64,000 bases of DNA. Source: an uncultured Planctomycetia bacterium (GTDB taxonomy: Bacteria; Omnitrophota; Gorgyraeia; VGKH01; JBHPFN01). Positions 6,897 to 22,606 of the stretch are shown here, one piece after another. Within the stretch, counting starts at the first letter, position 1. Each line of letters begins with the position of its first letter. The notes under the pieces were generated by a model. The model was not told the DNA's origin, ran no database searches, and saw only the letters and a list, made by a program, of their open reading frames with translations. The position numbers and the translations under genes are program-made. The stretch is from positions 49,512 through 113,511 of the forward strand of contig CAYOSQ010000004.1 of the NCBI GenBank assembly GCA_964406665.1. The letters run 5' to 3'.

Positions 6897-7000
6897 TGGA
6901 GGTGGCGGGAATCGTTCAAGCACGATTCCATCGTTATTTTCTCATGGAATCGAGTACTCCTTATTTTACATACTGAGTGCATATTTCCGCAACTCTCCGT
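6897..7000 (-). repeat. Repeat R1 (~100 nt); its first 18 nt (6897-6914) are identical to the 3' end of the tmRNA gene
   Basis: TGGAGGTGGCGGGAATCG is identical to 9441-9458. The rest of the element is ~80% similar to R2 (7743-7845) and not similar to ssrA. Confidence 0.6.
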
Positions 7001-7737: not shown

Positions 7738-7742
7738 CTAAT

Positions 7743-7845
7743 GAAGGTGACGGTAATCGTTCGAGCGCGATTCCATCGTTATTTTCTCGCAAGGAATCGA
7801 GTACTCCCTATTTTACTTATTGAGTGCGTATTTCCGCAACTTTCG
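7743..7845 (-). repeat. Repeat R2, a second copy of the ~100-nt element with a degenerate ssrA-3'-like head (GAAGGTGACGGTAATCG)
   Basis: It aligns with R1 along the whole element. It contains the same alternative-pairing segments (CGATTCC / GGAATCG / CGATTaCC). Confidence 0.55.
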
Positions 7846-7882
7846 TCAATATACATCTCTCTAAATGATCACCTCAACCTGC

Positions 7883-9298
7883 TTACCTCTTCATCTTAAA
7901 CCAGTTAGTTGATAAAGCTATTTTTGCATCGTCAATCAATGTTTTATTTCTTAAACTGTTTTTAAGCTTACGCAGTATATATTTTGGATTCAAATATACT
8001 TCCTGATAAAACTTTCTGTAGTACTCTTCTATTGTAGGCCAAGATAACACTTGGTGGTTATAAATTTCTGACGGGGTAGAATGAAATTTAAACTTCTCCC
8101 AATCATAAGTTTTAATATTTTTTTCTCTGTCAAGTTCGTTAAACAGCTCAGTTGCCGGCAAGGGAATCGTAATATTTACTTTGGCCAGATCAAGATTAAG
8201 GCTCTTGGCAAAATTTATTGTCTGTCGCATTGTCTGCTCAGTCTCTCCCGGAAGACCGAACATAAAATATCCTACAGTTTCCAACCCTGCTTTTTTAGAC
8301 CAATCTACGGCGTTCTTTACTTGCTCTAAGGTTATTCCTTTTTTTACCCTTTTTAATATCTCTTGATTCCCTGATTCGATGCCGAAATAAACACGGTAAC
8401 AGCCTGCCTTCTTCATTTTCTGCAATAACTCAAGATCTACTCTATTAACACGAATCCCTGTAAATGTACTCCAGTCAATATTGATTTTATTCAAGATAAG
8501 TAAATCACATATTTCTTTCGCCCGCTGCATATCTGTGGTAAAGCTATCATCTACTATGAAGACTTCTTTAAAACCCAGCTTTTTAACTCTTACAAACTCT
8601 TTAAGAACTCTTTGGGGTGATTTGGTTCTAAAAGTACTGCCAAAACAATTCTTATTACAAAAAATACATTGATAAACACAGCCCCGAGACGTCTCCACCC
8701 AGGCTACGGGGTTTTTTCTAGCAACAGTGGATGCAACCCTGTATCTATTTATTTCGTAAAGACTATACTCTGGATAAGGCAAGACATCTAAGTCTTCTAT
8801 AAATTCTTTCCTTTCATTGACCACAATCTTGCCATTTTGTTTAAATGCTATTCCTTTTAAATCTGATAAATTTTTGCCTTCAACTATTTCCTGGATGACA
8901 AAATCACCTTCTCCGATAACCGCAATATCTGAGGAAGTCTCTTTTAGCGACGATTCCGGAAACGATGAAGCATGCGCACCCCCGATTACAATAATTATTT
9001 TTTCATTAATCTCTTTGATCTTCTGGGAAATTCTTGCTGCCTCTTTGATTAAAGGAGTTACAAAAGTAATCCCTACGAAATCTGGTTTAAATCTTTCTAG
9101 TATCTTGAAAAAATCTTCATCTTCGTAAATATTAAAATCGAATATCTCCACCTCGTGGCCTTTTTCCATTAAGCTTCCTGCTAAGCAAGCAAGGGCCAAC
9201 GAACAGGTCGACGGAGCGATCCCTTTTGTAATAGTCTTTTCGTAAAACCTCTCAAAGGGTAAATCTAACAGTAATATTCTTTTAGGTTTGAGCGTCAT
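7883..9298 (-). CDS. B12-binding domain radical SAM protein (class B rSAM)
   Basis: N-terminal cobalamin-binding-like domain and a CxxxCxxC motif (CVYQCIFC). It has no C-terminal SPASM-type Cys cluster. Confidence 0.75.
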   Translation of the reverse strand: MTLKPKRILLLDLPFERFYEKTITKGIAPSTCSLALACLAGSLMEKGHEVEIFDFNIYEDEDFFKILERFKPDFVGITFVTPLIKEAARISQKIKEINEKIIIVIGGAHASSFPESSLKETSSDIAVIGEGDFVIQEIVEGKNLSDLKGIAFKQNGKIVVNERKEFIEDLDVLPYPEYSLYEINRYRVASTVARKNPVAWVETSRGCVYQCIFCNKNCFGSTFRTKSPQRVLKEFVRVKKLGFKEVFIVDDSFTTDMQRAKEICDLLILNKINIDWSTFTGIRVNRVDLELLQKMKKAGCYRVYFGIESGNQEILKRVKKGITLEQVKNAVDWSKKAGLETVGYFMFGLPGETEQTMRQTINFAKSLNLDLAKVNITIPLPATELFNELDREKNIKTYDWEKFKFHSTPSEIYNHQVLSWPTIEEYYRKFYQEVYLNPKYILRKLKNSLRNKTLIDDAKIALSTNWFKMKR

Positions 9299-9440
9299 TT
9301 TATTTTCTGAATTAATACAATAGAATTACTCCTCTAAAACCAAAAGCAAAGTCCCGATTTAACTTCGAGAAAGAAGCATTTTGACGAAGAAGACTCGTTC
9401 CTGCAAAGCTCAAGACGAAAGTTCTTAAGCTAACTAAAAG

Positions 9441-9834
9441 TGGAGGTGGCGGGAATCGAACCCGCGTCCTTAGATTACGCAGCAAACGCCTCTACATGTT
9501 TAGTCTATATTCTGTTTGTCGTCTTGGCTCACTCCCATAGACAGGATTAAACCAAAACCAGCCTTTTAAATTTTCATCTTAAGCCCAAAGGCAAAACTCA
9601 AGACTATCCTGCCGTCCCCTCGCGGGGACGTGCACCAACTTAACCCGCAGGCAAGCTAAGCGATGGCCTTGTCTAATTTATGTTAGACTAGGACTTTTTC
9701 AGCCAAGATTTCCTCAGCTTCTGCAACTACGTTGTAGTCTGCATTTGTATTGTGCAAGGTGTTTAACGAGGCCTCCCTGCAACCTCGACATGCGTACACT
9801 TACCCGATAATCTAAATCGAACCCTTTCACCCCC
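9441..9834 (-). ncRNA. ssrA: tmRNA (ssrA)
   Basis: 3' end GGACGCGGGTTCGATTCCCGCCACCTCCA has a T-arm plus acceptor. 5' end GGGGGTGAAAGGGTTCGATTTAG pairs with the 3' acceptor strand. Directly downstream of smpB. A possible tag ORF reads GCA GAC TAC AAC...GTC TAA, giving (A)DYNVVAEAEEILAEKVLV (tentative). The exact 5' end is uncertain and may overlap the smpB stop codon by a few nt. Confidence 0.75.
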
Positions 9835-10279
9835 TTCTTCTTAAAGCACGTTTAACTTCTAAATCTACTTGTTTCTTTTTTAAATCTCGACGCTTATCAT
9901 ACAATCTTTTTCCCTTAACCAAAGCCAGCTCAACCTTTGCACGCCCATTTTTAAAATAAAGTTTAAGCGGCACCAGAGAAAGTCCTTTCTGCGATACTTT
10001 ATCCTCTAGGCGTTTAATTTCCTTTTTATGTAAAAGTAGCCTACGATTTCTTGTCGGCTCAAGATTAAAAAAGCTAGCTTCCAAATAAGGACTTATATGA
10101 ACATTATACAACCAAACTTCTGACGATTCAATTCTAGCAAAACTATCTTTTAAATTAGCCCGAGAATCTCTTAGAGATTTTACCTCCGGCCCCTTTAGCT
10201 CTATCCCGCATTCTAAAGACTCGATTATCGCATAATCCCTAAATGCGCTGCTATTTTTCGCGATAAGTTTCTCGCCCAT
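9827..10279 (-). CDS. smpB: SsrA-binding protein SmpB
   Basis: 150 aa with the SmpB signature region (...GIELKGPEVKSLR...LLHKKEI...) and adjacent to ssrA. Confidence 0.85.
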   Translation of the reverse strand: MGEKLIAKNSSAFRDYAIIESLECGIELKGPEVKSLRDSRANLKDSFARIESSEVWLYNVHISPYLEASFFNLEPTRNRRLLLHKKEIKRLEDKVSQKGLSLVPLKLYFKNGRAKVELALVKGKRLYDKRRDLKKKQVDLEVKRALRRRG

Positions 10280-10290
10280 TAAAAAACCCT

Positions 10291-11250
10291 TTATTTAAAA
10301 AAAGTTAAAAACTGAAAAAGCATCAAGAATATTGGTATAGTAATAATACTTCCGACATGCGTGAAAAATACCCCGTGGCTTACATATACATCTTCAATAT
10401 CATGGTGTCGAGCTATTAATGATAGTGATGTTGCCGAAGGAACCGCCAGCTCTATGAGAATAAGAAATCCCAATAATTGAGGAACCCTTACCAGCGTTAA
10501 CAAAAGCAAGGCACATAACGGTAAAATAATCAATTTAAGCGTACACACAGAAACAATAGCTTTTTTATCTATGTTCTGCAGGCTCACCTGAGCTAAATTT
10601 GCGCCGATTGCAATCATAGCAAGAAAAAGAGTCCAGCTGCCAACGGTGTGCGCGATATCTATGACAATATCAGACACATACTGCTTACAACCAAATGATA
10701 CACCAACCAAAGATATAACCGTAGCGATCACCGGCGGACTAAATAGACTACTTATCCTTAAATCCCTTAATTTACCACCGATGAGATACCGCGTTCCATA
10801 CGACCATACGATTAGATTAAACCCAATTAGAAACAAAAAGATCAGTACGAACAGCTCCCCCGCTACTTCAGAAGAAAAAAGCGTCGCAACAAGAATAAGC
10901 GGTAAGTAGCCAGAATTTTGAAACGTAACAAGGCTTACAAACTGTCTTCGCTGTGCCTGCGATTGTTTTTCTTTTCTAAAACCCAAAAAAGCTTTCGCCA
11001 CAACAAAACCAAAAAGCGTGATTGCAATACTTATAAGTGGATATATCCACCACAGAGAATACTGCTTAAAATCAAATTTACGCAGTATCTCAGAAAAGAT
11101 TAAAAGCGGCAACGTGATATAAATAATAATTGTTGCAAGCGCCCGATTTACTTTTTGATTAAGTATCTTAACCTTAGCAAAGATATAGCCAATACTTCCT
11201 AGAGCAGCAATCTTCGCCATAGCCAAAAGAACAGTCTGAAAAAATACCAT
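10291..11250 (-). CDS. AEC-family (auxin efflux carrier/Mem_trans) membrane transporter
   Basis: 319 aa polytopic membrane protein with an AEC-like N-terminus (MVFFQTVLLAMAKIAALGSIGYIF). Confidence 0.55.
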   Translation of the reverse strand: MVFFQTVLLAMAKIAALGSIGYIFAKVKILNQKVNRALATIIIYITLPLLIFSEILRKFDFKQYSLWWIYPLISIAITLFGFVVAKAFLGFRKEKQSQAQRRQFVSLVTFQNSGYLPLILVATLFSSEVAGELFVLIFLFLIGFNLIVWSYGTRYLIGGKLRDLRISSLFSPPVIATVISLVGVSFGCKQYVSDIVIDIAHTVGSWTLFLAMIAIGANLAQVSLQNIDKKAIVSVCTLKLIILPLCALLLLTLVRVPQLLGFLILIELAVPSATSLSLIARHHDIEDVYVSHGVFFTHVGSIITIPIFLMLFQFLTFFK

Positions 11251-11466
11251 AAATTTCCCCTTTACTAGTGGAGTTATTATACACTAATCCATATCCTAAG
11301 AGCAATTTATATTTAGCGATACTGAGTAAATTTTGTTTTCTAATATTTACGAATGTGTTGACCGTTCTTAAATTATACAGTATACTTTTATATCGTGAAG
11401 AAAATGCCGAAGTGGCCCCAGACGCCTTTGGCGTCAGGGACTATCCGGCGAATCTGGCAAGCTAAT

Positions 11467-11550
11467 GCCGAAGTGGTGAAACTGGCATACACGCAGCGTT
11501 CAGGGCGCTGTTCCTTTACGGGATTGTGGGTTCGACTCCCACCTTCGGCA
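11467..11550 (+). tRNA. tRNA-Leu (anticodon CAG), 84 nt with a long variable arm
   Basis: Hand-folded. Acceptor GCCGAAG/CTTCGGC, anticodon stem-loop CAGCG-TTCAGGG-CGCTG, long variable arm, T-arm GTGGG-TTCGACT-CCCAC. Similar to E. coli tRNA-Leu. Confidence 0.8.
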
Positions 11551-11626
11551 CTTAATTTACCTGTTCTCGTCAAGAAAACCTTCAACCTACCCTCCTTTTG
11601 GCAGTAGAATTGGCAGTATTTCTCCA

Positions 11627-12688
11627 TTAAAACTTTACATCCAACCCTAACTCTTTATCCATCTGCTCTACAATTCTATCGGTAGAATGCGTGTACCATT
11701 CATCGATTGTCCTCGGATCTTTGTGTCCGGTTATCTTAGCGATGTTGATAGAGCTATATCCTCTATCTTTTAGATAAGTAACAACGAAATGTCTGAGCAA
11801 ATGAGGATAATAATTGCGTGTAATACCAAGTTCTTTCATCGCTCTCTTGAGAATCTTGCGGATAGTATCTTTTCCGATGGAAATTCCTTTCAACCTGCCT
11901 TGGTCATCTTTAACTTTGCTCGGAAATAACCAACCAAAAGGACTGTAGAGCTTATGGCGCTTCAAGTAAAGGATATGCTCATTCAACACGATACAATCCA
12001 TCTTAGCCAGCTTCTTAACGCCTTCTTCTTTGTCTTTGTGCTTATATAGATATATTCGTTCATTATCCAATTCAACATCATTGATTTTGAGAGTTCTAAT
12101 TTCATTACGCCTACTTCCGAATCTCGCCATCAGATAGATATATGCGAAGTATTGAAACCTATTTGCTCTGATCCAATCCAATACTCTCATCATTTCATCT
12201 TTTGGTGGTGGTCGCTTTATCTTCTTTTCTAACTTAGGATATTTGACTTCAGAGAATGGATTCTTTACATTTCTAAAGCTGACTTTCCAAAACTCTCTCA
12301 GCAATCTAATAGAATACTTTGCTGTTGAAGGACTATAGCTCTGCAACATATGCTTCTTGAAATCCTCTCCAATCTCTTTTGTGATCCGGTGCAAAGGCAA
12401 TGCAGGATATTTCTTCTGCAAGAAAGCACTAAAGTATCTTTTAACATCGTTATATCGATCGGTTGAAGCAGGAGCGAGCGTCTTTCTGTTTACGAAAATA
12501 TCGAAACTCTCGAAGAAGGAGCTTTGCTTACTCATAGCGCACTCGCCTTCACGCTCAAGCTGTGCAGCGTATTCTTTGGCATCTTTCTTGCGTAAATAGT
12601 CTATTTTGCTGACAGTCGTTGAATGTTCTTTACCGTCAACGCGCCAACATATACGCCAACTCTTTTTTCTGTCAACTACCCAAGCCAT
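11627..12688 (-). CDS. int: tyrosine-type site-specific integrase
   Basis: 353 aa with a C-terminal catalytic region including the HLLRH...Y motif. It lies immediately next to the tRNA-Leu 3' end, in the orientation typical of island integrases. Confidence 0.85.
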   Translation of the reverse strand: MAWVVDRKKSWRICWRVDGKEHSTTVSKIDYLRKKDAKEYAAQLEREGECAMSKQSSFFESFDIFVNRKTLAPASTDRYNDVKRYFSAFLQKKYPALPLHRITKEIGEDFKKHMLQSYSPSTAKYSIRLLREFWKVSFRNVKNPFSEVKYPKLEKKIKRPPPKDEMMRVLDWIRANRFQYFAYIYLMARFGSRRNEIRTLKINDVELDNERIYLYKHKDKEEGVKKLAKMDCIVLNEHILYLKRHKLYSPFGWLFPSKVKDDQGRLKGISIGKDTIRKILKRAMKELGITRNYYPHLLRHFVVTYLKDRGYSSINIAKITGHKDPRTIDEWYTHSTDRIVEQMDKELGLDVKF

Positions 12689-12690
12689 AT

Positions 12691-12861
12691 TACTTGTGTC
12701 CGTTCTTTCTAAAGTCTTGAATTACTTTGTCAGGTTCATATCTCGGATGCTTGCCGATCATAATTGTATCGATCCTGCCTTGCCTTCTGTAGTAATCAAT
12801 AGTTGAGACAGGAATCTTGAGAAGTTTAGATAATTCGAATTTATCAACTAACTGTTTCATA
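12691..12861 (-). CDS. excisionase/AlpA-like HTH DNA-binding protein (56 aa)
   Basis: Hand-translated: MKQLVDKFELSKLLKIPVSTIDYYRRQGRIDTIMIGKHPRYEPDKVIQDFRKNGHK. It is below the ORF-track size cutoff and sits directly upstream of int. Coordinates may be off by 1-2 nt. Confidence 0.5.
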
Positions 12862-12979
12862 CTGGTCTACCTCCACTAAATACTCAGGTTTAGGATAATG
12901 CTTCTCCCATTTTTCTTTAACTGACTGCTTTGATCGTGGCGTATCAAATTCTTTAATCCGGATCGCTTCTTCGCCACGC

Positions 12980-13540
12980 TTAACGACGACCTTGCAATAC
13001 ACCGGCTTTCTCCCTGCTACGATCCCATCTACGGTAATAACCTGATTTTCTTCGCACCTTGCCATCTTTTTTGCCAAGAGGCCTGCCGAGCTTCTTGCCT
13101 TGGCTTCTCGCTCGCTGTAGGCCGGATTTGGTCCTCTCAATGATTCTCTTGCGCTCCTGCGCCGCTACCCAAGCATAGAAGGCAACCAGAACCTCTCCCA
13201 AGCCATCATCTGTAAAATCGAACATTGGCTCTTGCAGACTTTTAATACCTACCTTATTTCTTCTTATTCTTTTGATGTATCCCAAGGTATTAAACATACC
13301 TTCGCGAGAGAATCTGTCTAACGCCCATACAAGGATTAAATCAAACTTGCGCCTCTCTGCATCATGGAGCATGCGAAGAAAGTCTTTGCGATCTCCATTG
13401 CCTCCTGAAGCGTAATCAACATACTCATCAACGATTTCGCCCTGCAATGCATTTGCATAATCCCTTAGCGCTTGAAGCTGATTCTCAGGACTTTGGCTGC
13501 CGTTGTCCTTCGAAACACGACTATAAATTGCTATTTTCAT
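12980..13540 (-). CDS. serine recombinase (resolvase/invertase family)
   Basis: N-terminal catalytic domain MKIAIYSRVSKDNGSQSPENQ with the catalytic Ser. The C-terminus is basic and atypical, with no clear HTH. An ORF at 12844..13140 overlaps it in another frame. Confidence 0.7.
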   Translation of the reverse strand: MKIAIYSRVSKDNGSQSPENQLQALRDYANALQGEIVDEYVDYASGGNGDRKDFLRMLHDAERRKFDLILVWALDRFSREGMFNTLGYIKRIRRNKVGIKSLQEPMFDFTDDGLGEVLVAFYAWVAAQERKRIIERTKSGLQRARSQGKKLGRPLGKKDGKVRRKSGYYRRWDRSREKAGVLQGRR

Positions 13541-13554
13541 AATTACCTCCTTGC

Positions 13555-13761
13555 TTATGGAAATAAAGTTTTAGTATCCTGCTGCAAGATCTCAGCGACT
13601 TGCTGTCTTACAGCCGAGTTAGGAATTTCTTTGCCTGTCTCCCAATCAGAAACTGTCTTTTGCCCTACACCAAGCAGTCTACCGAGTTCCCATTGAGAAA
13701 GCCGTGCGCGCTTCCGGTACAGACTCAACATATTGTCGTATCGCTCGATTCTGTATTGCAT
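13555..13761 (-). CDS. Xre/Cro-CI family HTH transcriptional regulator (68 aa)
   Basis: HTH region LSQWELGRLLGVGQKTVSDWETG. It is divergent from the second Xre gene. Confidence 0.7.
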   Translation of the reverse strand: MQYRIERYDNMLSLYRKRARLSQWELGRLLGVGQKTVSDWETGKEIPNSAVRQQVAEILQQDTKTLFP

Positions 13762-13933
13762 CTGTTCCCTCCTTCTAATTTTATTTATTAGATTGCCAAG
13801 TTAAAAAATATATGCCCTTGCGCTTGTTCTTTCTTACCTACGAATGTAAGTATATACTACTTCAAAATAAAAGTCAAGTTTTATTTTTATCTTTTTTCTT
13901 GTATATGTAAGTAAGTATTGGTAAACTACTTCT

Positions 13934-14248
13934 ATGAGAACATCAAAATACCCAAAGAAAGCTGTAACGATCGGACAAAAGATTCGCAAAGCAAGGATGG
14001 ATCGGAAAAAAGATAAAGACCTGCTCGATGTTGCGAATAAAGTTGGCATAACCGAAAGCTATTTATCGCGGATTGAAGCAGATAAGAATTTGCCCTCAAT
14101 GGATGTTGCAGCGAAACTTGTCGAAGAACTCGGAATAAAGAAAGACGATATCATTCCTGAACTAATGCAAATTAAAATTGCTACCCTCTCAAAATCAACA
14201 GTCCACATCAACGCAAAGCATATCACTTTCAAAAAACCACGCGTCTAA
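13934..14248 (+). CDS. Xre family HTH transcriptional regulator (104 aa)
   Basis: HTH region LLDVANKVGITESYLSRIEADKNLPSMD. It forms a divergent pair with 13555..13761 across an intergenic region carrying TGTAAGTA repeats. Confidence 0.7.
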   Translation: MRTSKYPKKAVTIGQKIRKARMDRKKDKDLLDVANKVGITESYLSRIEADKNLPSMDVAAKLVEELGIKKDDIIPELMQIKIATLSKSTVHINAKHITFKKPRV

Positions 14249-14296
14249 AAGTTTACATCTTGCCAAACAGCCAAAACAGAGATAAAATAAGTCTTA

Positions 14297-14566
14297 ATGA
14301 AAACTCTCGTAGAAGGTGTCGATTTCGTCTACTTCTCCCCCTACCCTGCCTGCAAAGAGCCCTACAAAGTCGATCCCAAGGAAGTAAATCCGGTTTTCAA
14401 AGATATTTTGCATAAAGCATGGCTTGAGGCGGAAGCTCAGCTTCCCTCATGGGAGTTTCCTGAATACGATGTACCAATTTTACAGAAAAAGATCTTACAA
14501 GAACAATATGGGATCAGCTTGCGGACTGTTCATGAGCTAAATCCTGAGATGCCGGTAGGATATTAA
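14297..14566 (+). CDS. hypothetical protein (89 aa)
   Basis: Element cargo. No recognisable motif. Confidence 0.4.
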   Translation: MKTLVEGVDFVYFSPYPACKEPYKVDPKEVNPVFKDILHKAWLEAEAQLPSWEFPEYDVPILQKKILQEQYGISLRTVHELNPEMPVGY

Positions 14567-14576
14567 GGAGTCTTGC

Positions 14577-15005
14577 TTGAATATTAAATTCTTTAAAGCG
14601 TGTAATACCTGTAAGGCACGATATCTCCTATATCATCTCAAATCAGATTGTTTATTTGCCCAAGGAGTATTAAAACAGTTAGACGAAGTCAGTGAGAAAA
14701 CTGGACAAGAAATTGTTGACTCGACAAAAGATATGGATGCAAAGGCAACTTTTTTAGAATGGAGCAGATGGAAAAGTGCGCCATTCATAGTAATCACTTC
14801 AGCGTTTGCAATAGGAGTCCCCTTGCTTTGGGTGCAAAAACTTGAAGCGGTAGCTTGGATTCTTATAGTATTTTCAGTTATTTCCTTTATGCTTTACGCC
14901 ATCTTTCTTTCACAAGGTGGCTTCGACCAACTATATAAGCTACTCATTGTTAATGATATATCAAAAAGGGTAAATCCAACTAAACAAAATAAAAATGATG
15001 GCTGA
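14577..15005 (+). CDS. hypothetical membrane protein (142 aa, 2 predicted TM)
   Basis: N-terminal Cys-containing region and two hydrophobic helices. Confidence 0.45.
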   Translation: MNIKFFKACNTCKARYLLYHLKSDCLFAQGVLKQLDEVSEKTGQEIVDSTKDMDAKATFLEWSRWKSAPFIVITSAFAIGVPLLWVQKLEAVAWILIVFSVISFMLYAIFLSQGGFDQLYKLLIVNDISKRVNPTKQNKNDG

Positions 15006-15282
15006 GAGTATTTTATTTCTTTGGGGTCTTTATTATTTTGTCTGCAAGGTCGATTATAAACGCTTTAAAGATACTTGGGTAAATCTTCTTAAAGGCATAG
15101 GGTTTTTGTTGTGCGGAAAAGTAATGGGAATCTTCATGACTTCTCTCTATGCAGGTGGTGCGGATAGCTATAGGGTAGATATGGTTTTCGGCTTGCCATT
15201 ACTTATATGGACTATTGTAAAAGTAGCAAAGCTATTCAATGAAAGAGATGAGTTAAAAAGAAGTCGCAATAAGGAGAAATAA
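14995..15282 (+). CDS. hypothetical small membrane protein (95 aa)
   Basis: Hydrophobic segments; overlaps its neighbours in an operon-like arrangement. Confidence 0.4.
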   Translation: MMAESILFLWGLYYFVCKVDYKRFKDTWVNLLKGIGFLLCGKVMGIFMTSLYAGGADSYRVDMVFGLPLLIWTIVKVAKLFNERDELKRSRNKEK

Positions 15283-15283
15283 A

Positions 15284-15778
15284 ATGAGAAAACTATTACT
15301 TGTTTTAATGTGTTTGATGTTGGCTGGGTGTGCGAGTGGTCAAGTCGTAAAACTTTCGCCTGATACTTATATAATTTCACGCACCAGCTCAGCAGGAGCA
15401 TTCACGAATATGGCTCGGTTAAAAACCAGAGTTATTCAGGATGCAAATGATTTTGCCGAGAAACAAGACAAGGTTGCTATCCCCCTATCATACGATTGGC
15501 ATCGACCAGCTCAAGGATTTCCTACGGTTGAATATCAATTTAGGGTAGTAGATAAGGATGATCCTGAGGCAAAGCGAGCACATTTAGTCCCAAGACCTGA
15601 TATTACAATTCAAAGAGATGATTCAATTGATGCAGATATAGATATTGATATGAAAGATGTGACCGAAGAAAGCTCTGATCTTTATACAGAGTTAATGAAG
15701 TTAGATGATTTGAGAGCACGAGGTATTCTAACCGATAAGGAATTTCAAATCCAAAAAGAGAAATTGCTTAATAGATAA
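15284..15778 (+). CDS. lipoprotein with a C-terminal SHOCT-like domain
   Basis: Lipobox LMLAGCASG. The C-terminus LMKLDDLRARGILTDKEFQIQKEKLLNR matches the SHOCT short C-terminal motif. Confidence 0.55.
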   Translation: MRKLLLVLMCLMLAGCASGQVVKLSPDTYIISRTSSAGAFTNMARLKTRVIQDANDFAEKQDKVAIPLSYDWHRPAQGFPTVEYQFRVVDKDDPEAKRAHLVPRPDITIQRDDSIDADIDIDMKDVTEESSDLYTELMKLDDLRARGILTDKEFQIQKEKLLNR

Positions 15779-15789
15779 GGAGAAATGAA

Positions 15790-15960
15790 ATGAAAAAAGA
15801 AACGCTTTTACAGATTATATTATTGCTGGTAGTAAGCGGTATAATCTTTGTTATTGTCTACCCCAAATATGATATTGCCTGCACATATGGAACCTGCTTT
15901 AAGCTAAACAAATTTACTGGTAACTCAACCTATTACTTGCAAGGCGAGTGGCATAAATAA
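15790..15960 (+). CDS. small membrane protein (56 aa, below ORF-track cutoff)
   Basis: Hand-translated: MKKETLLQIILLLVVSGIIFVIVYPKYDIACTYGTCFKLNKFTGNSTYYLQGEWHK. Confidence 0.35.
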   Translation: MKKETLLQIILLLVVSGIIFVIVYPKYDIACTYGTCFKLNKFTGNSTYYLQGEWHK

Positions 15961-16106
15961 AATGCCAAGAGGCGTAAGAAACGATGAGCTTTGGGAAGCT
16001 TATAAGAAAACATTTGGCTGTGGTGATAAGGGCTTAACTTTCATCGTTGTTTTTATACTACTGCTTGGATTTATTTTAGTTGTTTTATTATAAGAAAGGA
16101 GTAATT

Positions 16107-16451
16107 ATGAAGTTATTAGTTGTTTTAATCTGTGTGTTGTTGATTGGACTTGCTGTTGCATTTGCTCAAAATCCTGTTATTGAAACCAGAAAATACTTAA
16201 ATCAAGAAACAGAAAGAATACACGAGAAAGCGAAGGGAATAGCAGAAGAATTAAAAAAGCAGATGGTTCCAATAGTAATAAGCACACAAGAAATTTCAGC
16301 AGGCGAGGTAATACAAGCAGAAATGCTTGAAACAGTAATGATTCATAAAAAGATTGAAGGAAGTTTTACTGCTCCTGAACAGGTTATAGGAAAACGAGCC
16401 ATTGTAGATATTAAAAAAGTTGTGCCCATTGAAGCTAAAAATATAGAATAA
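16107..16451 (+). CDS. secreted hypothetical protein (the start is probably the internal ATG at 16107 rather than 16080)
   Basis: RBS AAGGAG lies upstream of MKLLVVLICVLLIGLAVAFA, a signal peptide. Confidence 0.45.
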   Translation: MKLLVVLICVLLIGLAVAFAQNPVIETRKYLNQETERIHEKAKGIAEELKKQMVPIVISTQEISAGEVIQAEMLETVMIHKKIEGSFTAPEQVIGKRAIVDIKKVVPIEAKNIE

Positions 16452-16456
16452 ATTTA

Positions 16457-16490
16457 GGGCGACAGGTGCAAACTTAAAAACCCATCGCCC
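16457..16490. terminator. hairpin between convergent genes; weak bidirectional terminator candidate
   Basis: GGGCGA...TCGCCC stem; the U-tract is weak. Confidence 0.3.
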
Positions 16491-16543
16491 CTTGTGTAGA
16501 TAGATGCCGCTACCCACACTCCTCTGGTTAGGAACCTGAGAAA

Positions 16544-17275
16544 TTAAAGTTCTTTATCTAACTCTGCTTGCACTTTCTTATCAAACTCCCTAGAAGACTT
16601 ATTAGGTGATGATGATATAACCTTCTTAGGGATTCTAATATCCTCTCTAACTGTTTTATACCTATCTACAACAGGTTGGTTTTGCCTTTCCCTACGAGCC
16701 TTTTCTTCTTTAACAGCTTCTTTCATTGTCATTTCTTTTAAGGCAGCCATATCCCATTTCTTCCGTAGCTGGTCATTGACTCTTTGTCTTCTAGCATGAA
16801 CATCTGGATGGTCACCTTTATGTAGCTTATATCCTGCCATCTTGGAATAAGATTCCATTGTCGGATGCTCATCGTGCTCTGCTTGCAATCTATCTATTTC
16901 TCTTTGATGTTCTATATCAGTTGTATCAGAATATGGTAATCCAGCCGCTGATTCAGCTTCAGCTTGTTCCTCTACTTTTTTTAAAGCAGTCTCAAGCCTA
17001 CCATTTCTACGAAGGTCTTCTCCAAGTTTACGACCAATCTCTCTTGATTGCTTATAACCCTCATAATACTTTATAAGTTTATCAGTTAATTTTTTAGGAG
17101 CAGTGCCTTCTCTAACAGCATTTACAAGACTTGGATTTTCCGCAAACTCTTTATTCAATTCATGTTCAAGCGTTGCTACCTTATCTACTATCTTCCTACT
17201 TTCTTCATTATGATTTTTTGCAAGAAGCAATATTGCTCTGGTATATTTTTGTTCTTTAGTCCAAGTCATTTGCAA
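16544..17275 (-). CDS. hypothetical coiled-coil protein (243 aa; possible TTG start, internal ATG at 17267-17269)
   Basis: Charged, heptad-like sequence. Element cargo. Confidence 0.45.
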   Translation of the reverse strand: MQMTWTKEQKYTRAILLLAKNHNEESRKIVDKVATLEHELNKEFAENPSLVNAVREGTAPKKLTDKLIKYYEGYKQSREIGRKLGEDLRRNGRLETALKKVEEQAEAESAAGLPYSDTTDIEHQREIDRLQAEHDEHPTMESYSKMAGYKLHKGDHPDVHARRQRVNDQLRKKWDMAALKEMTMKEAVKEEKARRERQNQPVVDRYKTVREDIRIPKKVISSSPNKSSREFDKKVQAELDKEL

Positions 17276-17398
17276 TCACCCCAGACATCTTTCGTAGGTT
17301 CTGTATGATTTACCTTTGACAACATTTCTGCTGCATTGCTTGCCCAGCTTCTGTTATTACTTCGCTTTGGTTTTTGTTTCTTACCTTTACCTTTGCCT

Positions 17399-17821
17399 TT
17401 ACTCATCTTCAATTCTCCTTTCTACTTCTTCATTAAACTTCTCCATGGATTTTGGTGTTTTTATTTTTTTATTGAACCTTATATCATCTTCAGTTTCTTG
17501 TCGCTGGATATTCTTTTTAGCATCATATGCTTCACGAGCATCTCTTTCTTTCTTTTCTTTCTCTACCGTATCCTTCAAGTGCTTCTCTTTAAGATGCTTC
17601 ATATCTTGCTTCTGTTGTTCTTCCCTTTCCGACTGTTGTCTTTTAAAATATTCATCAACATCATCACCCTGCATAGCCTTTAAGACTTCTGCACCATCTT
17701 CCATATCGTGGGTTTCTTTGAACTTATCCAATGCTTCTTTAACATCAACTTGTTTTTCTTCAGGAGTTGATTCAGGTGAGACCTCTTTTCCTTCATCTTC
17801 CATCTTAATTCCCTCCTTCAA
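17399..17821 (-). CDS. hypothetical highly charged (E/K/D-rich) protein, 140 aa
   Basis: Extreme charge bias; roughly half the residues are E, D or K. Confidence 0.4.
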   Translation of the reverse strand: MKEGIKMEDEGKEVSPESTPEEKQVDVKEALDKFKETHDMEDGAEVLKAMQGDDVDEYFKRQQSEREEQQKQDMKHLKEKHLKDTVEKEKKERDAREAYDAKKNIQRQETEDDIRFNKKIKTPKSMEKFNEEVERRIEDE

Positions 17822-17833
17822 GGTTTTGTTTCA

Positions 17834-18043
17834 TCACGAGAACTTGCTGCCTTTGTGATGATATGAGCATATATTTGTTCCGTCAAAAACTGCTACTCCA
17901 CATTTGCCTGCATATCCTGTCTCAAATTGACACCACTTATACGGTTTCATGTCATTCGTATACTGAATCTGAGCGAACTCATTTAGATCTTCTTGAAGAT
18001 TATCATCAATTCTCCCTTCTGTTCTCGTTGTTGTTGTTTTCAT
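17834..18043 (-). CDS. hypothetical small protein with a Cys/His cluster (possible zinc ribbon)
   Basis: CQFETGYAGKCGVAVFDGTNICSYHH. Confidence 0.35.
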   Translation of the reverse strand: MKTTTTRTEGRIDDNLQEDLNEFAQIQYTNDMKPYKWCQFETGYAGKCGVAVFDGTNICSYHHKGSKFS

Positions 18044-18148
18044 GCCATTCCTCCTTCCTTTGATGAGTAAACAATCGTTCGATTGTTATGTACTGTCTTT
18101 CCTCGCGTAAAAACCTCTCGAAATAGAGGGGGAGGATTGTTTATCCAT

Positions 18149-18535
18149 TTATTTACTGTAAGTCCTCTTTTCAAGAATGACTCTTTCGACCTTTTCGAGT
18201 CTTTGCTCGATATTCTCGATCTCTCTGCTTTTTAGAACATATTCAATAATGCACTTAGAAGCTGAGAGCCGGACTTCTGCCCTTGGAGCTTTAATCAGCT
18301 CAATCAATTCGTCAACTGCCTGCGAAGCTGCCGACTTAAGCGTATTCAAGGCGCTATTAACAACAACATCGCGCTTAGACCGCAATTCCGCCTTGAATGC
18401 GTCATTCTTCAGCCACTTATGGAGAGTAGCTCTTGAGACGCTTGATCGCCTTGATGCTTCTTCAATCGAAGGAGAGGCAATTATATGAGCAATCGCCAAC
18501 AACTGCCTTCTCTTGATTTTTCTCTCTTTTTCCAT
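18149..18535 (-). CDS. HTH DNA-binding protein, possibly a terminase small subunit-like protein
   Basis: N-terminal HTH (SRRSSVSRATLHKWLKN) followed by a helical C-terminus, an organisation reminiscent of TerS proteins of phage satellites. Confidence 0.35.
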   Translation of the reverse strand: MEKERKIKRRQLLAIAHIIASPSIEEASRRSSVSRATLHKWLKNDAFKAELRSKRDVVVNSALNTLKSAASQAVDELIELIKAPRAEVRLSASKCIIEYVLKSREIENIEQRLEKVERVILEKRTYSK

Positions 18536-18559
18536 GTCATCCTCCTCAAATTGTCGATT

Positions 18560-18988
18560 TTATATCAATTCTGTCTCAATACCGGCAACACTATCAATAA
18601 TCGCCTGCATGTATTTGTCAAAATCCTTATCCTTTTTTCTGATTGTCTTAGTATCAACAGGATCGCCGATATTATATTCTTTCACTTTGCCATCAACCAT
18701 AATGGGCCGTAAGCGCATAAAAACTCGAGGTTCGTAGTCTTTTCCGTATCTCATCCTTAAACGCCTTAAAACGCCTTCTTTGTCCTGATCATCGTAGAAA
18801 CCGAGTTCCGGTGGCGCGTCTTGCAACCTTATCGTGCTTTCAACCTTCTTCAACCGTTTTCCTACAGACACAAAATACCTCCTTTTGTTTAGCCAATAAT
18901 CATGTTGCGGAAATCGTACACTCTTTATATATATGTGTACGATTGTACGATAATGATACAACCAACATCCACAGAGAGAAGCATTCAA
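18560..18988 (-). CDS. hypothetical protein (142 aa)
   Basis: Element cargo. No motif recognised. Confidence 0.35.
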   Translation of the reverse strand: MNASLCGCWLYHYRTIVHIYIKSVRFPQHDYWLNKRRYFVSVGKRLKKVESTIRLQDAPPELGFYDDQDKEGVLRRLRMRYGKDYEPRVFMRLRPIMVDGKVKEYNIGDPVDTKTIRKKDKDFDKYMQAIIDSVAGIETELI

Positions 18989-19081
18989 CGAAATGCTTCT
19001 TCTCTGAGTAGGTTTTGTGAGGAATAGTACTAACTACCTCTTTTGTACGACCGTACGATGCCTTCATTTTACGAACAAATA

Positions 19082-20128
19082 TCATGCACCCTCCCCTTTT
19101 GGTACATTGTTCGTCTCATCATACAGTTCTTCTAAACTACCCTTTTTCATCAACAAATGCGTCTTTCCAGTCTTGTTTACTTCAAAAAGCGTACTGTTTC
19201 GTATCAATTCCCTCAAAGTTGTACCACTACAGAGCTTGGTTTCCTTGGCCTTCTTGATCAATTCCGGAACAGCGACCTGATCCTTATCAAACTCCTCAAA
19301 CAACATCATAAGTGTTTCCTCGGTAAACTTCTTCTCGTAGTCTGTAATAAACTCGAACCATAGCGCATCGGTGTCAATCTTAGCGATGAATGGCGCAAAA
19401 CGCGCGCTGTTGCGACTTTTCTGGCAAGATACGGTAACACTACTGCTTGCGCCCTCAAGCGTGATGTGGCAGTCTAACCACGCTTCCCACTTATAGCTAC
19501 CGGCAGCCATCTGACCACCAGACCTATAATCCTTCGTTGATTTCCTCCAATGATGAACCACAAGAATAGCTACACCGAACCGTTCTATTAAAGTATTAAG
19601 ATATGCTGTTAATTTGCTGACCTGCTCTTTCTCATTCTCATTACCGAACCACGCATTGCCTAAAGGATCGATAATCAGCACATCTACTGCTAAATCAGCT
19701 AACCACCCTTCAAGCTGTTGCCTATCGGCTTCTTCTAAGAGATCTGCCGAAGGTAGATACTTAACATAGAGGTTATCTGCCGTAATGTTGTCTTTTGCGC
19801 ACATCTTCTGGAATCTCTCCTTCAAAGCAGACTCTCCCATCTCAAGATCAAGATATAAGACCTTTGCCGGTGCAATATCAAACTTGTCCAGTAACCTGCT
19901 TTGACCGGTAGCCATTGCCAACGCGCAGTTCTGGACAAAGATACTCTTGCCGATATTCGCTTGTGCTGAGATCATTCCCTTGCCTTTCTTCGGCAGTATG
20001 CCTGAAGCATAATACTCAATAGGCGGTATATCTCTGCTCATCAATTCCGGCAGCGTCATAGGTGGAGATTCTTTTTTCTCTTGAACAATCTCTAAATCTT
20101 TCTTGATCATAGTATCTACGCCATTCAT
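19082..20128 (-). CDS. AAA_25/RepA-like RecA-fold helicase (P4-type replication helicase)
   Basis: Walker A AQANIGKS, Walker B VLIIDPLGN, and LVVHHWRKS. Confidence 0.65.
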   Translation of the reverse strand: MNGVDTMIKKDLEIVQEKKESPPMTLPELMSRDIPPIEYYASGILPKKGKGMISAQANIGKSIFVQNCALAMATGQSRLLDKFDIAPAKVLYLDLEMGESALKERFQKMCAKDNITADNLYVKYLPSADLLEEADRQQLEGWLADLAVDVLIIDPLGNAWFGNENEKEQVSKLTAYLNTLIERFGVAILVVHHWRKSTKDYRSGGQMAAGSYKWEAWLDCHITLEGASSSVTVSCQKSRNSARFAPFIAKIDTDALWFEFITDYEKKFTEETLMMLFEEFDKDQVAVPELIKKAKETKLCSGTTLRELIRNSTLFEVNKTGKTHLLMKKGSLEELYDETNNVPKGEGA

Positions 20129-20129
20129 A

Positions 20130-20684
20130 TCATCCTCCTGCCAGTTGTGCGACTGCGGTCTTGAAATCGCAATCTTTTAATAGTTGCATAAAACTGATGG
20201 CATCCCCATGAACACCGCAGCCAAAGCAATGAAACTTGTTGTTCTCATCTATCATAAACGAAGCAGTTTTCTCTCCATGGAACGGACAGAGCGCATATTG
20301 ACGCTTACCGTTCCGGCGTAGCTTCTCAAAGCTATATATACTTGTAATAGGCGTTTGCTTGGCAATCTCTTTACTGCGCTCAAGATCATATGTCTTTTGC
20401 TTATACTGCTTATTAGATAAGAGCAACTGCAGGCGCTTGAGTCTTTTAAGTTGCTTGCGTGCCTCGTTAAATCTGCAGTCTAAGATGTCTATTACCTCAA
20501 GCCAAAACCACTTGGAGAATGGATCTTTTATCACAGCGATCTTCTTAACAAATGGCTGGATTTCCTCGACATAGCTCTTTTCTTTGACAACTAACCATTC
20601 TTTGATCTTCATAGGAACAATCTCTTTTGCTTCCGGAAAGATCTTGAGTAGCTCAATATCTGTTGGATAATTAGCGTAGTACAT
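20130..20684 (-). CDS. CHC2 zinc-finger (DnaG-type zinc-binding) domain protein
   Basis: C-terminal CPFHGEKTASFMIDENNKFHCFGCGVHGDAISFMQL is the canonical primase zinc-finger. No TOPRIM domain is visible. Its stop is 1 nt from the helicase start. Confidence 0.65.
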   Translation of the reverse strand: MYYANYPTDIELLKIFPEAKEIVPMKIKEWLVVKEKSYVEEIQPFVKKIAVIKDPFSKWFWLEVIDILDCRFNEARKQLKRLKRLQLLLSNKQYKQKTYDLERSKEIAKQTPITSIYSFEKLRRNGKRQYALCPFHGEKTASFMIDENNKFHCFGCGVHGDAISFMQLLKDCDFKTAVAQLAGG

Positions 20685-20845
20685 TGAATCAACTCCTTTG
20701 GCAGTAAAATGGCAGTAAAGTATACCAGAACCTGCTCTTTTTAGCTTTTTCTACTGCAAGGAATTTTAACTACTTTGAAGAATCTATAGACGAGAGATAC
20801 AAACTGCGGTATAATTGTGAAGCGTGTTGAAAGCATGGAGTTATT

Positions 20846-20860
20846 CTCCCACCTTCGGCA
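20846..20860 (+). repeat. attR-like 15-bp direct repeat of the tRNA-Leu 3' end (CTCCCACCTTCGGCA)
   Basis: Identical to 11536-11550. It marks the distal boundary of the integrated element. Confidence 0.7.
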
Positions 20861-20884
20861 TATTTATCCTATCTGTTTCTTCGA

Positions 20885-20913
20885 TTGACAAACATCTATT
20901 ATTCCCATATAAT
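20885..20913 (+). promoter_or_regulatory. consensus sigma-70 promoter (TTGACA-17 nt-TATAAT) upstream of rpmA
   Basis: The exact consensus hexamers with a 17-nt spacer are seen in the sequence. Confidence 0.55.
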
Positions 20914-21019
20914 TAGTGCCTATGTTAAATATGCCCCCGCTTAGTTTTGCTTCTTAAAACGTAACAGCGTGGGTTAATTCGCCGGTACTAAATAACGGAC
21001 ACATTAAAGGAGGAAAATA

Positions 21020-21277
21020 ATGGCAAGACGCGGTGGAATGACTGATATTCATTACAAAGAAACAAAAGGTCTTAAAAAAAGCGGCGGTCAGCTAGTAAAA
21101 GCTGGAACAATACTTACCCGACAAGGTGAAAGATGGAAAGCAGGAATAAATGTCCGAGGAAAATCTACCTTATGTGCAGTCTGTGATGGTGAAGTATATT
21201 TTACTAAAAGACGCGGTACCTATAAGACCAAAAAAAGCTCAACTGTTATAAACGTAAAAGAAATAAAACTTACCTAG
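21020..21277 (+). CDS. rpmA: 50S ribosomal protein L27
   Basis: 85 aa with an L27-like sequence (...GGQLVKAGTILTRQGERWKAGINVRGKS...DGEVYF). Strong RBS GGAGG. Confidence 0.7.
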   Translation: MARRGGMTDIHYKETKGLKKSGGQLVKAGTILTRQGERWKAGINVRGKSTLCAVCDGEVYFTKRRGTYKTKKSSTVINVKEIKLT

Positions 21278-21286: not shown

Positions 21287-22606
21287 TTACCTTTCAGTTT
21301 CAATATTAATATAATCCTTAAATATCCTGCGGCCGGTTACTGCCTCTCTGACATAGGCCATTCTTTCAGAAACAAAAGGATGGGTTCTCCAGTAACTAAA
21401 CTGAGTAATCTTGCTGTGTTTCATTAATTTTTCTAATAAAGTAACAACACCTTCGGGATTGTAGCCGGCACGCTTACAATAAGTAACTGCAAGTTGATCT
21501 GCCAAGAACTCATCTTCTTTTGAATGCTCAAGGAATACACTGGTTATCGCAGCATTGACACCTCTGACAAAGTCAGGATTACCTGTGGAAATCATCATTA
21601 AATTCAAAAGACTATAACCTAACGCTGCCTGCAATTTCTTAATGCTATGACGGGCAACGATATGTCCAACTTCGTGGGCAATTACACCAGCAAGCTCATC
21701 ATCGTTTTCGATTACGTCAATTAACCCTTTAAATATATAAACGTATCCACCGGGTAAACTCACGGCGTTTATCTCTTCAGAATCTGATACTTTAAAATAA
21801 TAATCTATTGCCTGCCTATCACAAACAGAAACAATTTTCTGCCCGATATCTCTTACTTTATTCTGCAGCTCTACATCTTCCAATATTCCAAATTCTTCTT
21901 CAAATGCCTTAGAGACCGAACGGCCTAAACGCACTTCCCTGTCAGAACTATAAAAAAAGACGTCTTCTTTTCCTGTTGCTACGTTATACTCTGTTGCACA
22001 GCCGGAAACCATGCAAACGAAAAATAACATCAGTATACCAACACCAATCTTTTTTAACATTTTATAGAGCTTGGCCAACGGAACTCCTACAACGTTATAA
22101 AAACATCCCTCAATCCTTCGAATAAAAAGGCTGCCATAATTTTGAATATCGAAACTGCCGGCTTTATCTAGCGGAGATACTAGAGAAAAATACTTATTTA
22201 TCTCTTTATCAGTCAAAGAGTCCATATAAACCTTTGTTTTTTCATAATCAGTCAAAGTTCTCTTTTTGTCTAAGTCGATAACCGCGATTCCAGTATATAC
22301 CCATTGAGGTTTTTGGAAGAGATATTTCAAATCCTTCTTAGCATCTTTGATGTTTTTGGGCTTACCGATTATTTTATTTTTGCCAATCAAAACTACAGTA
22401 TCAAAACCGATTACGACACCTTTCTTAAATCTTTTTGCAGCTTCCTGAGCTTTTAAAAAAGCATTATCTTTAACTAATCCAGAAACAGAAGAAGTAATTT
22501 CACGTTTCTCTTTAACTTTACTTTTATAAACCTTAAACTTAAGACCGACTTCCCGTAATAATTTTACTCTCTGAGGAGATCTTGATGCAAGAATAATATT
22601 TATCAT
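21287..22606 (-). CDS. in-frame Maf-like (N-terminal ~182 aa) and M48-family zinc metallopeptidase lipoprotein (C-terminal) ORF
   Basis: The N-terminus MINIILASRSPQRVKLLREVGL is Maf-like. From Met183 there is a lipoprotein signal MLKKIGVGILMLFFVCMVSGC followed by HEVGHIVARH (HExxH). No stop codon separates the two parts. Confidence 0.6.
   Translation of the reverse strand: MINIILASRSPQRVKLLREVGLKFKVYKSKVKEKREITSSVSGLVKDNAFLKAQEAAKRFKKGVVIGFDTVVLIGKNKIIGKPKNIKDAKKDLKYLFQKPQWVYTGIAVIDLDKKRTLTDYEKTKVYMDSLTDKEINKYFSLVSPLDKAGSFDIQNYGSLFIRRIEGCFYNVVGVPLAKLYKMLKKIGVGILMLFFVCMVSGCATEYNVATGKEDVFFYSSDREVRLGRSVSKAFEEEFGILEDVELQNKVRDIGQKIVSVCDRQAIDYYFKVSDSEEINAVSLPGGYVYIFKGLIDVIENDDELAGVIAHEVGHIVARHSIKKLQAALGYSLLNLMMISTGNPDFVRGVNAAITSVFLEHSKEDEFLADQLAVTYCKRAGYNPEGVVTLLEKLMKHSKITQFSYWRTHPFVSERMAYVREAVTGRRIFKDYINIETER

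Follow-up and report, generated by a model that had tools for sequence, protein, structure and literature searches.

Phage-inducible chromosomal islands (PICIs) have been defined by a short list of core components, in which capsid morphogenesis is optional and is absent in variants of the Staphylococcus aureus pathogenicity island (SaPI) type (de Sousa et al. 2023, PMC10085698). The window analyzed here, a stretch of 64,000 nucleotides of contig CAYOSQ010000004.1 from a marine Candidatus Omnitrophota bacterium, contains a 9.3-kb island at the 3' end of a tRNA-Leu(CAG) gene that can be compared with this list. The island has an integrase, a replication module, and a small terminase subunit (TerS) homolog, has neither a capsid-morphogenesis gene nor the structural genes forbidden by the list, and has a regulator that is not of the recognized AlpA or Stl type; with this regulator counted, four of five core components are present. 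We give a probability of about 55% to the reading that the island is a PICI-like, helper-dependent phage satellite of marine Candidatus Omnitrophota. What the DNA provides is the island's parts list, and every step of a life cycle, helper dependence included, we infer from it. An earlier note on this DNA, made from the raw sequence, had proposed a PICI-like architecture and a list of gene calls; every call held when gene content was checked against Pfam, PHROGs, and NCBIfam, and the PICI-like interpretation was supported, with the qualification that gene order is not the classical one.

The ends of the island are marked by a tRNA gene, identified with ARAGORN, and an exact direct repeat of its 3' end:

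11467 to 11551, plus strand: tRNA-Leu(CAG), the integration target, intact at attL; seven other Omnitrophota genomes have the same tRNA in the corresponding syntenic place.
11536 to 11550, plus strand: attL core, a 15-bp direct repeat equal to the tRNA 3' end.
20846 to 20860, plus strand: attR core, the second 15-bp copy.

The sequence CTCCCACCTTCGGCA occurs exactly twice in the window, at these two positions. With 0 occurrences of such a repeat expected by chance and none in 100 dinucleotide-preserving shuffles, the proposal of an element of about 9.3 kb bounded by this repeat was borne out. Within the tRNA, the end of the T-loop falls in the repeat, as do the 3' strands of the T-stem and of the acceptor stem and the discriminator base; tyrosine integrases that target tRNAs classically cross over in this region from T-loop to 3' end. 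With a repeat unit of 9,310 bp, the island agrees with PICIs in size (about 8 to 15 kb), in its integration at a specific site, the tRNA-Leu 3' end, and in having the integrase at one end. The predicted attP junction reads ...CATGGAGTTATT-CTCCCACCTTCGGCA-CTTAATTTACCTG..., and the predicted attB junction reads ...GTGGGTTCGA-CTCCCACCTTCGGCA-TATTTATCCTATC....

The surrounding genes place the island in an otherwise conserved neighborhood. On one side lie tmRNA, SmpB, and transporter genes and on the other rpmA, a Maf-M48 gene, LptFG, and others, all conserved in relatives; homologs of the Maf-M48 protein at 19 loci (44 to 62% identity) were nearly all titled Candidatus Omnitrophota. The order Maf-M48, tRNA-Leu(CAG), membrane transporter, SmpB, tmRNA is kept in seven other Omnitrophota genomes, in which the gap between Maf-M48 and the tRNA varies from 20 nt (L038) and 43 nt (L036) up to 6 kb with unrelated genes, and no integrase or island protein lies in that gap in any of the seven. 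Because the flanking order is conserved in relatives that have no island genes there, the island is an insertion at a variable spot 3' of tRNA-Leu. The relatives with an island-free site are only about 50% identical in protein to the host. The earlier note had suggested looking in relatives for an empty tRNA-Leu/rpmA junction: L036 and L038 supplied island-free sites, and the rpmA/tRNA-Leu junction was in none of the relatives examined. Its description of intact flanks with a consensus rpmA promoter was correct, as a perfect TTGACA-17-TATAAT lies at 20885 to 20913, between attR and rpmA. Its concern that prophage genes just outside might make the island the end of a full prophage was also addressed; with conserved housekeeping genes on both flanks, a prophage extending beyond the region was rejected, as was a complete tailed prophage, because large terminase subunit (TerL), portal, major capsid, tail, and lysis genes are neither inside nor adjoining the element.

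Two further sites lie just inside the ends:

11592 to 11618, plus strand: CTCCTTT and two tandem TGGCAGTA copies at 12-nt spacing, 42 bp inside attL; candidate arm-type integrase site.
20692 to 20717, plus strand: CTCCTTT and two tandem TGGCAGTA copies at 11-nt spacing, 129 bp inside attR, overlapping the leader of the CHC2 gene; candidate arm-type site.

The blocks align with each other, and the pairs have the same orientation at both island ends. Four of the six copies of the TGGCAGTA octamer in the window (1.26 expected) are these two terminal pairs, which may serve as arm-type integrase sites.

Replication and putative packaging genes form a minus-strand operon that starts by attR. Percent identities in the list refer to related elements (L046 and L052) and to a population contig (L019), all described below:

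20130 to 20684, minus strand: 184-aa protein whose C-terminal part is a CHC2 zinc ribbon of the DnaG type (PF01807, 1.4e-21, residues 106 to 182 only); its L052 and L046 counterparts are 44% and 35% identical, respectively.
19082 to 20128, minus strand: AAA_25 (RepA/DnaB-like) replicative helicase, 348 aa (PF13481, 1e-27; phage primase/helicase PHROGs).
18900 to 19085, minus strand: 61-aa open reading frame (ORF) from gene calls, overlapping the helicase stop codon.
18560 to 18988, minus strand: ORF of 103 to 142 aa, from translation, with a 35% identical 71-aa homolog in the same slot of L052.
18149 to 18535, minus strand: TerS homolog, a helix-turn-helix (HTH) protein of 128 aa (phrog_2538, 1.9e-9).
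17834 to 18043, minus strand: 69-aa ORF with a Cys/His cluster, from translation; no family matches.
17399 to 17821, minus strand: 140-aa protein, 54% charged residues; no family matches; 57% identical to an L019 allele that has an N-terminal extension.
17266 to 17412, minus strand: small basic ORF of about 46 aa, from gene calls; 55% identical to the L019 allele.
16544 to 17275, minus strand: 243-aa all-helical ORFan, 40% charged, the last gene of the operon; 49% identical to the L019 allele.

The 128-aa HTH protein, tentatively called a TerS in the earlier note, went from the weakest of its calls to the strongest. A profile of nine close homologs retrieved 9,527 cluster representatives, and among 120 sampled family members 119 matched phrog_2538 and 104 matched PF13022. 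An AlphaFold 2 model (predicted local distance difference test score [pLDDT], 81) has a three-helix HTH (residues 9 to 42) and long helices (45 to 81 and 86 to 127). Its best Foldseek match in the PDB was 2ao9 (probability 1.00, E 1.3e-3), a nine-chain protein of Bacillus cereus prophage phBC6A51 that has been cited as a putative nonameric TerS (PMC7672466), and weaker fold matches included the TerS proteins of phages E217 and Sf6. In phages, such as Clostridium phage vB_CpeS-1181 and Xanthomonas phage SU1, members of the family are annotated as TerS and are encoded directly upstream of TerL; hhalign comparison of the island's close family with the vB_CpeS-1181 TerS gave 98% probability (E 1.9e-13). 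The family is also present in satellites. Streptococcus satellite phage Javan records made up 34 of the 35 phage-collection matches of family member P0150 and 16 of 18 for P0200, the TerS-family gene sits after the replication genes in the Javan satellites (8 to 12 kb), and hhalign against ORF19 of Streptococcus satellite Javan156 gave 97 to 99% probability. P0150 had no match among 72,556 plasmids. When the family profile was compared with PDB sequences, the only matches were HEAT and alphaRep proteins, to one helical hairpin, and these were judged a motif-level artifact. The protein was taken as a TerS homolog because of the family, fold, phage-context, and hhalign matches together with the absence of plasmid matches, and on this homology its identification as a TerS without a TerL partner in the island is well supported. 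In sequence and in model it has the N-terminal HTH and helical region of a TerS-type protein, with a family position upstream of TerL in phages.

The place of a PICI primase-replicase is filled by the CHC2 protein and the AAA_25 helicase, but without a detected primase catalytic domain. The helicase has 70 homologs (41 to 67% identity), several of them named Omnitrophota; some are standalone, and others are fused to PrimPol plus PriCT_1, DUF3854, or DnaB_N. Its matches comprised 100 phage records versus 2 plasmids.

Structural genes were not found. The earlier note had seen no capsid, tail, or large terminase; in Pfam and PHROG searches the island ORFs matched none of these, nor a portal, a lysis protein, a holin, or a head-tail connector, and PICIs likewise have no tail, holin, portal, or connector genes. 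The longest unannotated ORF encodes 243 aa; therefore, a tailed virion cannot be encoded by the island. This 243-aa ORFan matched only itself among 5.8 billion clusters, had no phage or PADLOC match, and gave an all-alpha single-sequence AlphaFold 2 model (pLDDT, 67.5) with no fold match at an E below 1. Neither a relaxase, a type IV secretion system (T4SS) or coupling protein, a partition protein, nor a toxin-antitoxin domain was found in any island ORF (Pfam, NCBIfam), and an integrative and conjugative element (ICE) or integrative and mobilizable element (IME) was rejected, as there is no relaxase or T4SS.

Recombination and control genes occupy the attL end:

11627 to 12688, minus strand: tyrosine integrase, 353 aa (PF00589 Phage_integrase, 1.8e-20; SAM-like domain; phrog_1, 2e-38).
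12690 to 12860, minus strand: 56-aa MerR/HTH_17-type protein, 2 nt upstream of int (PF00376, 4.5e-4, and PF12728, 1.8e-3, both below the Pfam cut-off; phrog_7735 excisionase, 1e-3).
12844 to 13002, minus strand: small ORF between the resolvase and xis genes, 52 aa in metagenome gene calls (contigs L004, L010, and L019).
12980 to 13540, minus strand: small serine recombinase, 186 aa, catalytic domain only, with an Arg-rich tail and no HTH_7 (PF00239 Resolvase, 2.4e-34, residues 3 to 150; phrog_95/125); 49% identical to the L046 resolvase.
13555 to 13761, minus strand: Xre-type HTH, 68 aa (HTH_3/HTH_31), heading the leftward xre-resolvase-xis-int operon.
13762 to 13933, no strand: divergent control region, 172 bp, containing a site that resembles a promoter and an imperfect direct repeat of 27 nt (13827 to 13853 and 13892 to 13918).
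13934 to 14248, plus strand: Xre-type HTH, 104 aa (HTH_3, 2.7e-10), heading the rightward accessory operon; 41% identical to the L046 Xre protein.

The integrase sequence shows R...HxxR...H...Y motifs. A small HTH gene does lie beside int, as the earlier note had said, and its 56-aa product is probably an excisionase or AlpA analog, an identity that depends on low scores and on position. The divergent Xre pair is clear, and no protein matched a Stl or AlpA profile. The slot of the 52-aa ORF is filled in L046 by a 72-aa ORF. In both the window (12980 to 13761) and L046 (19493 to 20358), a small Xre HTH gene stands immediately before the serine recombinase gene, and as the recombinase has no C-terminal HTH, its DNA-binding part may come in trans.

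Between the regulators and the minus-strand operon is a block of accessory genes:

14297 to 16451, plus strand: seven small ORFs with hydrophobic segments, from translations.

In order, these encode proteins of 89 aa; 142 aa with two transmembrane segments; 95 aa with one transmembrane segment; a 164-aa lipoprotein with a lipobox (LAGC) and a SHOCT domain (3.9e-7); 56 aa with a transmembrane segment; 43 aa; and a 123-aa CpaB/FlgA-like protein with a signal or transmembrane segment and a SAF domain (1.2e-7; NCBIfam CpaB 1.3e-9, below cut-off). PADLOC found no defense gene of note in the island, and the block is probably cargo.

Relatives of the helicase and TerS were examined in their genomic contexts (L046/L047, L072, L048, L052/L053, and L051). 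In L046/L047, beside a tRNA-Ser, the order is CHC2, AAA_25, small ORFs, TerL (Terminase_3, phrog_2), methylase, MazG, Xre, HTH, Xre plus resolvase, small ORF, and integrase, which is the backbone of the window island plus a large terminase. L072 is phage-like, with a 57% identical helicase followed by a 74-aa ORF, TerS (Terminase_2), TerL, a 494-aa ORF, and a 1,386-aa polyvalent protein. L052/L053 encode CHC2 (44%), a different helicase, small ORFs, TerS (63%), Xre, and a large serine integrase, and L051 encodes a Toprim_2 primase-helicase, then small ORFs, TerS (59%), and HTH_17. The 7.8-kb L048 element (GCA_964372915.1, CAYJRN010000017.1, 1 to 8230) encodes an integrase, a SpoVG-like protein, AAA_25 (56%), HTH_17, and NYN; it is inserted in a tmRNA 3' end, is bounded by the 20-bp direct repeat GATTCCCGGCACCTCCACCA (386 to 405 and 8211 to 8230), and adjoins, in another genome, the same SmpB/transporter/tRNA-Leu neighborhood as the window island. 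Apart from a weak SHOCT match, L046, L048, and L052 have no counterpart of the membrane block. The island therefore belongs to a mosaic set of small integrative elements in which the packaging slot is TerS with or without TerL; replication genes of this set are shared with phage-like loci. A megablast search of the whole island against phage records gave no match. A test for TerS-family membership was negative for the 127-aa and 141-aa proteins that L046 encodes upstream of TerL, which are not homologous to the island TerS. In that locus (7871 to 21023, ERZ19026215 scaffold_21), one tRNA-Ser(TGA) lies between two elements with integrases: on its 5' side an HTH_17-MerR-Int element, an arrangement that abuts tRNA-Thr in L050, and on its 3' side an element of at least about 12 kb (CHC2-AAA_25 ... 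TerL ... resolvase-Int) with no recognizable capsid genes.

Contigs of the same population were collected by searching for identical Maf-M48, L27, transporter, and CHC2 proteins in about 20 metagenome assemblies. All 35 loci were collinear with the integrated form and 99.7 to 100% identical to the window; the island genes are all intact, at least 99.7% conserved across the assemblies, and include no pseudogenes. Contig L019 (1 to 1800, versus window 16494 to 18100) is 99.97% identical to the window up to ~16494, and past this sharp boundary its alleles of the 243-, 46-, and 140-aa proteins are only 49 to 57% identical, the 140-aa homolog having an extra 120-aa N-terminal extension. Such a module swap is of a kind known from phages and satellites and points to ongoing exchange with related elements. 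Many other contigs end inside the island, at ~16.4, 17.5, 19.2 to 19.4, and 20.9 kb.

If the island is a satellite, one Xre protein would silence it until a helper phage lifts repression. The integrase and the Xis-like protein would then recombine the two 15-bp cores to give a 9.3-kb circle, perhaps assisted by the TGGCAGTA pairs in the two arms. Replication of this circle would fall to the helicase and zinc-ribbon proteins, and the serine recombinase may resolve multimers. By binding island DNA and recruiting helper TerL, the island TerS would cause the island to be packaged in helper capsids and transferred. The envelope-protein block would be cargo, and the charged proteins of 243, 140, and 46 aa, which diverge fast, might serve to interfere with the helper.

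Several results weigh against a helper-dependent satellite. No helper phage was identified, and gene order differs from that of classical PICIs. The 128-aa protein scored 25.4 bits against PF13022, under the 27.9-bit cut-off, and its TerS function is read from homology and gene context; the scores behind the Xis/AlpA call are likewise below Pfam cut-offs. In Pfam and PHROG searches, neither a Toprim nor a primase catalytic domain was detected in the 184-aa CHC2 protein, and no recognizable capsid-morphogenesis gene, optional in PICIs, was found in the island. Neither attB (the empty site) nor attP (the circle) was present in the 35 contigs. A metagenome scan for attL, attR, attB, and attP junction patterns returned five unrelated tRNA loci and no known island contigs; because the known attL/attR contigs were not returned, the scanned collection lacks these samples and the scan is silent either way. 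Scanned against IMG/VR, neither the helicase nor the TerS alignment retrieved a relative.

An island that is present in every population contig, with no empty site or circle, would also be expected of a fixed remnant, now vertically inherited, of a small temperate phage or of an L046-like TerL-bearing element from which TerL and morphogenesis genes were deleted. Relatives with the same backbone do carry TerL (L046/L047) or TerS-TerL and large proteins (L072), and such a remnant may remain excision competent but unpackaged. We consider this origin unlikely, as recombination, regulation, replication, and TerS genes are intact, the repeats are exact, no pseudogenes were found, and the allele swap at ~16494 indicates ongoing exchange. 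Small size also recurs with other integrases and targets (L048, 7.8 kb in tmRNA; L052, serine integrase), which points to a stable small-element lifestyle and not to random decay.

The possibility that the island is instead an integrative, self-replicating plasmid-like or mobilizable element without phage capsids, its 128-aa HTH protein only a regulator or partition protein, draws on the fact that AAA_25/RepA-like helicases and resolvases are common among plasmid functions. In addition, Pfam describes PF13022, whose cut-off the island protein does not reach, as a transposase HTH, and HTH families yield many weak cross-matches. Record counts make this a poor fit, with P0150 found in no plasmid versus 35 phage or satellite records and the helicase matching phages far more than plasmids; the TerS family also stands directly upstream of TerL in phages, and the relaxase, T4SS, partition, and toxin-antitoxin domains of such elements were not found in island ORFs. 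We therefore rate a plasmid-like element as distinctly improbable. An autonomous non-tailed virus, membrane based or filamentous-like, would use the plus-strand membrane, lipoprotein, and SAF genes as its structural module, and the seven consecutive small envelope-type proteins are what such a virus might encode. There is precedent in the Dehalococcoides IME1 elements, first thought to be satellites and then re-read as a non-tailed virus (bioRxiv 10.64898/2026.09.15.751708). For the window island this is very improbable, since no assembly or extrusion ATPase (pI/Zot-like) or rolling-circle Rep was found in Pfam and PHROGs, a TerS gene would have no role, and the membrane block is not common to L046, L048, and L052, barring the weak SHOCT match.

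Returning to a helper-dependent satellite, a more specific proposal can be offered tentatively, at somewhat worse than even odds: that the island is the first recognized member of an Omnitrophota-specific satellite lineage mobilized by undescribed tailed Omnitrophota phages, with L072-type loci as candidates. The same joint proposal would define the lineage by a layout that opens with replication genes and closes with the integrase, a tyrosine integrase paired with a serine recombinase that lacks an HTH, a primase remnant reduced to its zinc ribbon alongside AAA_25, and a phBC6A51-type TerS. The island has its helicase clade in common with these phage-like loci and its TerS family in common with streptococcal PICIs.

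Omnitrophota are uncultured, ultra-small bacteria, and to our knowledge their viruses and routes of gene transfer are almost unknown; no report linking Omnitrophota with phage satellites was found in the literature searched. An orphan TerS in a satellite would imply that tailed helper phages infect this Omnitrophota lineage, and it offers a handle for finding them through a TerL partner, the shared helicase clade, and a matching pac or TerS specificity. If the satellite reading is true, a new phylum and low-oxygen marine water are added to the range of the PICI-type strategy, with one TerS family used by satellites of hosts as distant as Streptococcus and Omnitrophota. Even as a fixed remnant, the island would still be a clean example of tRNA/tmRNA-targeted island turnover in Omnitrophota.

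Several features outside the island were also recorded, among them the gene next to attR:

21020 to 21277: rpmA (ribosomal protein L27, 85 aa, divergent N terminus; Ribosomal_L27, 7.3e-10).

The rpmA gene stands alone behind its consensus promoter, between attR and Maf-M48, and an L27 gene is absent between Maf-M48 and tRNA-Leu in the seven other Omnitrophota, so that its position is lineage specific. In the neighboring protein (439 aa, 21287 to 22606), a Maf nucleotide pyrophosphatase is fused via a hydrophobic segment to an M48 peptidase, an arrangement conserved in Omnitrophota. The tmRNA (9438 to 9834; Rfam, 164.7 bits) has an ARAGORN tag, AEAEEILAEKVLV, unlike the tags of related Omnitrophota (e.g., ending PVFAH), and the tag frame may be miscalled. 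A direct repeat of ~108 nt, 87 to 89% identical between copies (6897 to 6997 and 7742 to 7844) and with no Rfam match at gathering score, lies just upstream of two minus-strand genes, one for an MshEN/T2SS-E ATPase (5088 to 6800) and one for a 100-aa ORF (7400 to 7702), and perhaps acts as a leader or regulatory element common to both. At another tRNA, in an unrelated metagenome contig (L054, ~840 to 1180 of Ga0265297_10002458, reverse strand), the tRNA 3' end equals the att core and is followed by three more copies of the 15-mer within 330 nt, which look like serial integration scars.

Among known systems, classical PICIs follow the order int, regulators, pri/rep, terS, all genes after int reading away from it. 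The island does not have this order; its replication/TerS operon starts at the attR end (20684) and reads toward the integrase, opposite to classical PICIs. Capsid-forming PICIs (cfPICIs) differ in their defining TerL, portal, capsid, and head-tail genes, all absent from the island, with TerL only in the relatives L046 and L072. P4-like satellites resemble the island in having an integrase, an AlpA-type regulator, which in the island is putative, primase/helicase-type replication, and a size of ~10 kb at a tRNA gene; homologs of Psu, Delta, Sid, and Epsilon were not detected in the island (Pfam, PHROGs), which in turn has a TerS and a serine recombinase that P4 does not. The island departs in a defining feature from each of the cfPICI, P4-like, prophage, and ICE/IME models.

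Integrative mobile elements encapsidated in virions (VEIMEs), in the parts of their description consulted (PMC9618062), share with the island a marine host, an integrase, primase/helicase-type replication, an HTH of putative AlpA/excisionase type, the absence of a major capsid gene, and, in some groups, TerS homologs. They are defined by concatemers in virus particles, whereas the island is known from sequence and is likened to them by description only; Omnitrophota are not among the host groups named in those parts. The TerL-bearing L046/L047 elements share CHC2 (35%), AAA_25 (56%), Xre (41%), the Xre plus resolvase (49%) plus small ORF plus integrase module, and a position adjacent to a tRNA. 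The Streptococcus Javan satellites (e.g., MK448340 and MK448334) belong to hosts of another phylum than the diderm Omnitrophota and replicate with a phrog_5609 helicase or DnaD-like organizer unrelated to the CHC2 and AAA_25 proteins of the island, which also has an extra serine recombinase and no recognizable capsid-morphogenesis gene. On gene content, the basis of this comparison, the island and the Javan satellites have in common a size of about 8 to 12 kb, a tyrosine integrase at one end, HTH regulators, no capsid, tail, or lysis genes, and replication genes of their own, after which come small ORFs and a TerS-family homolog of about 110 to 130 aa.

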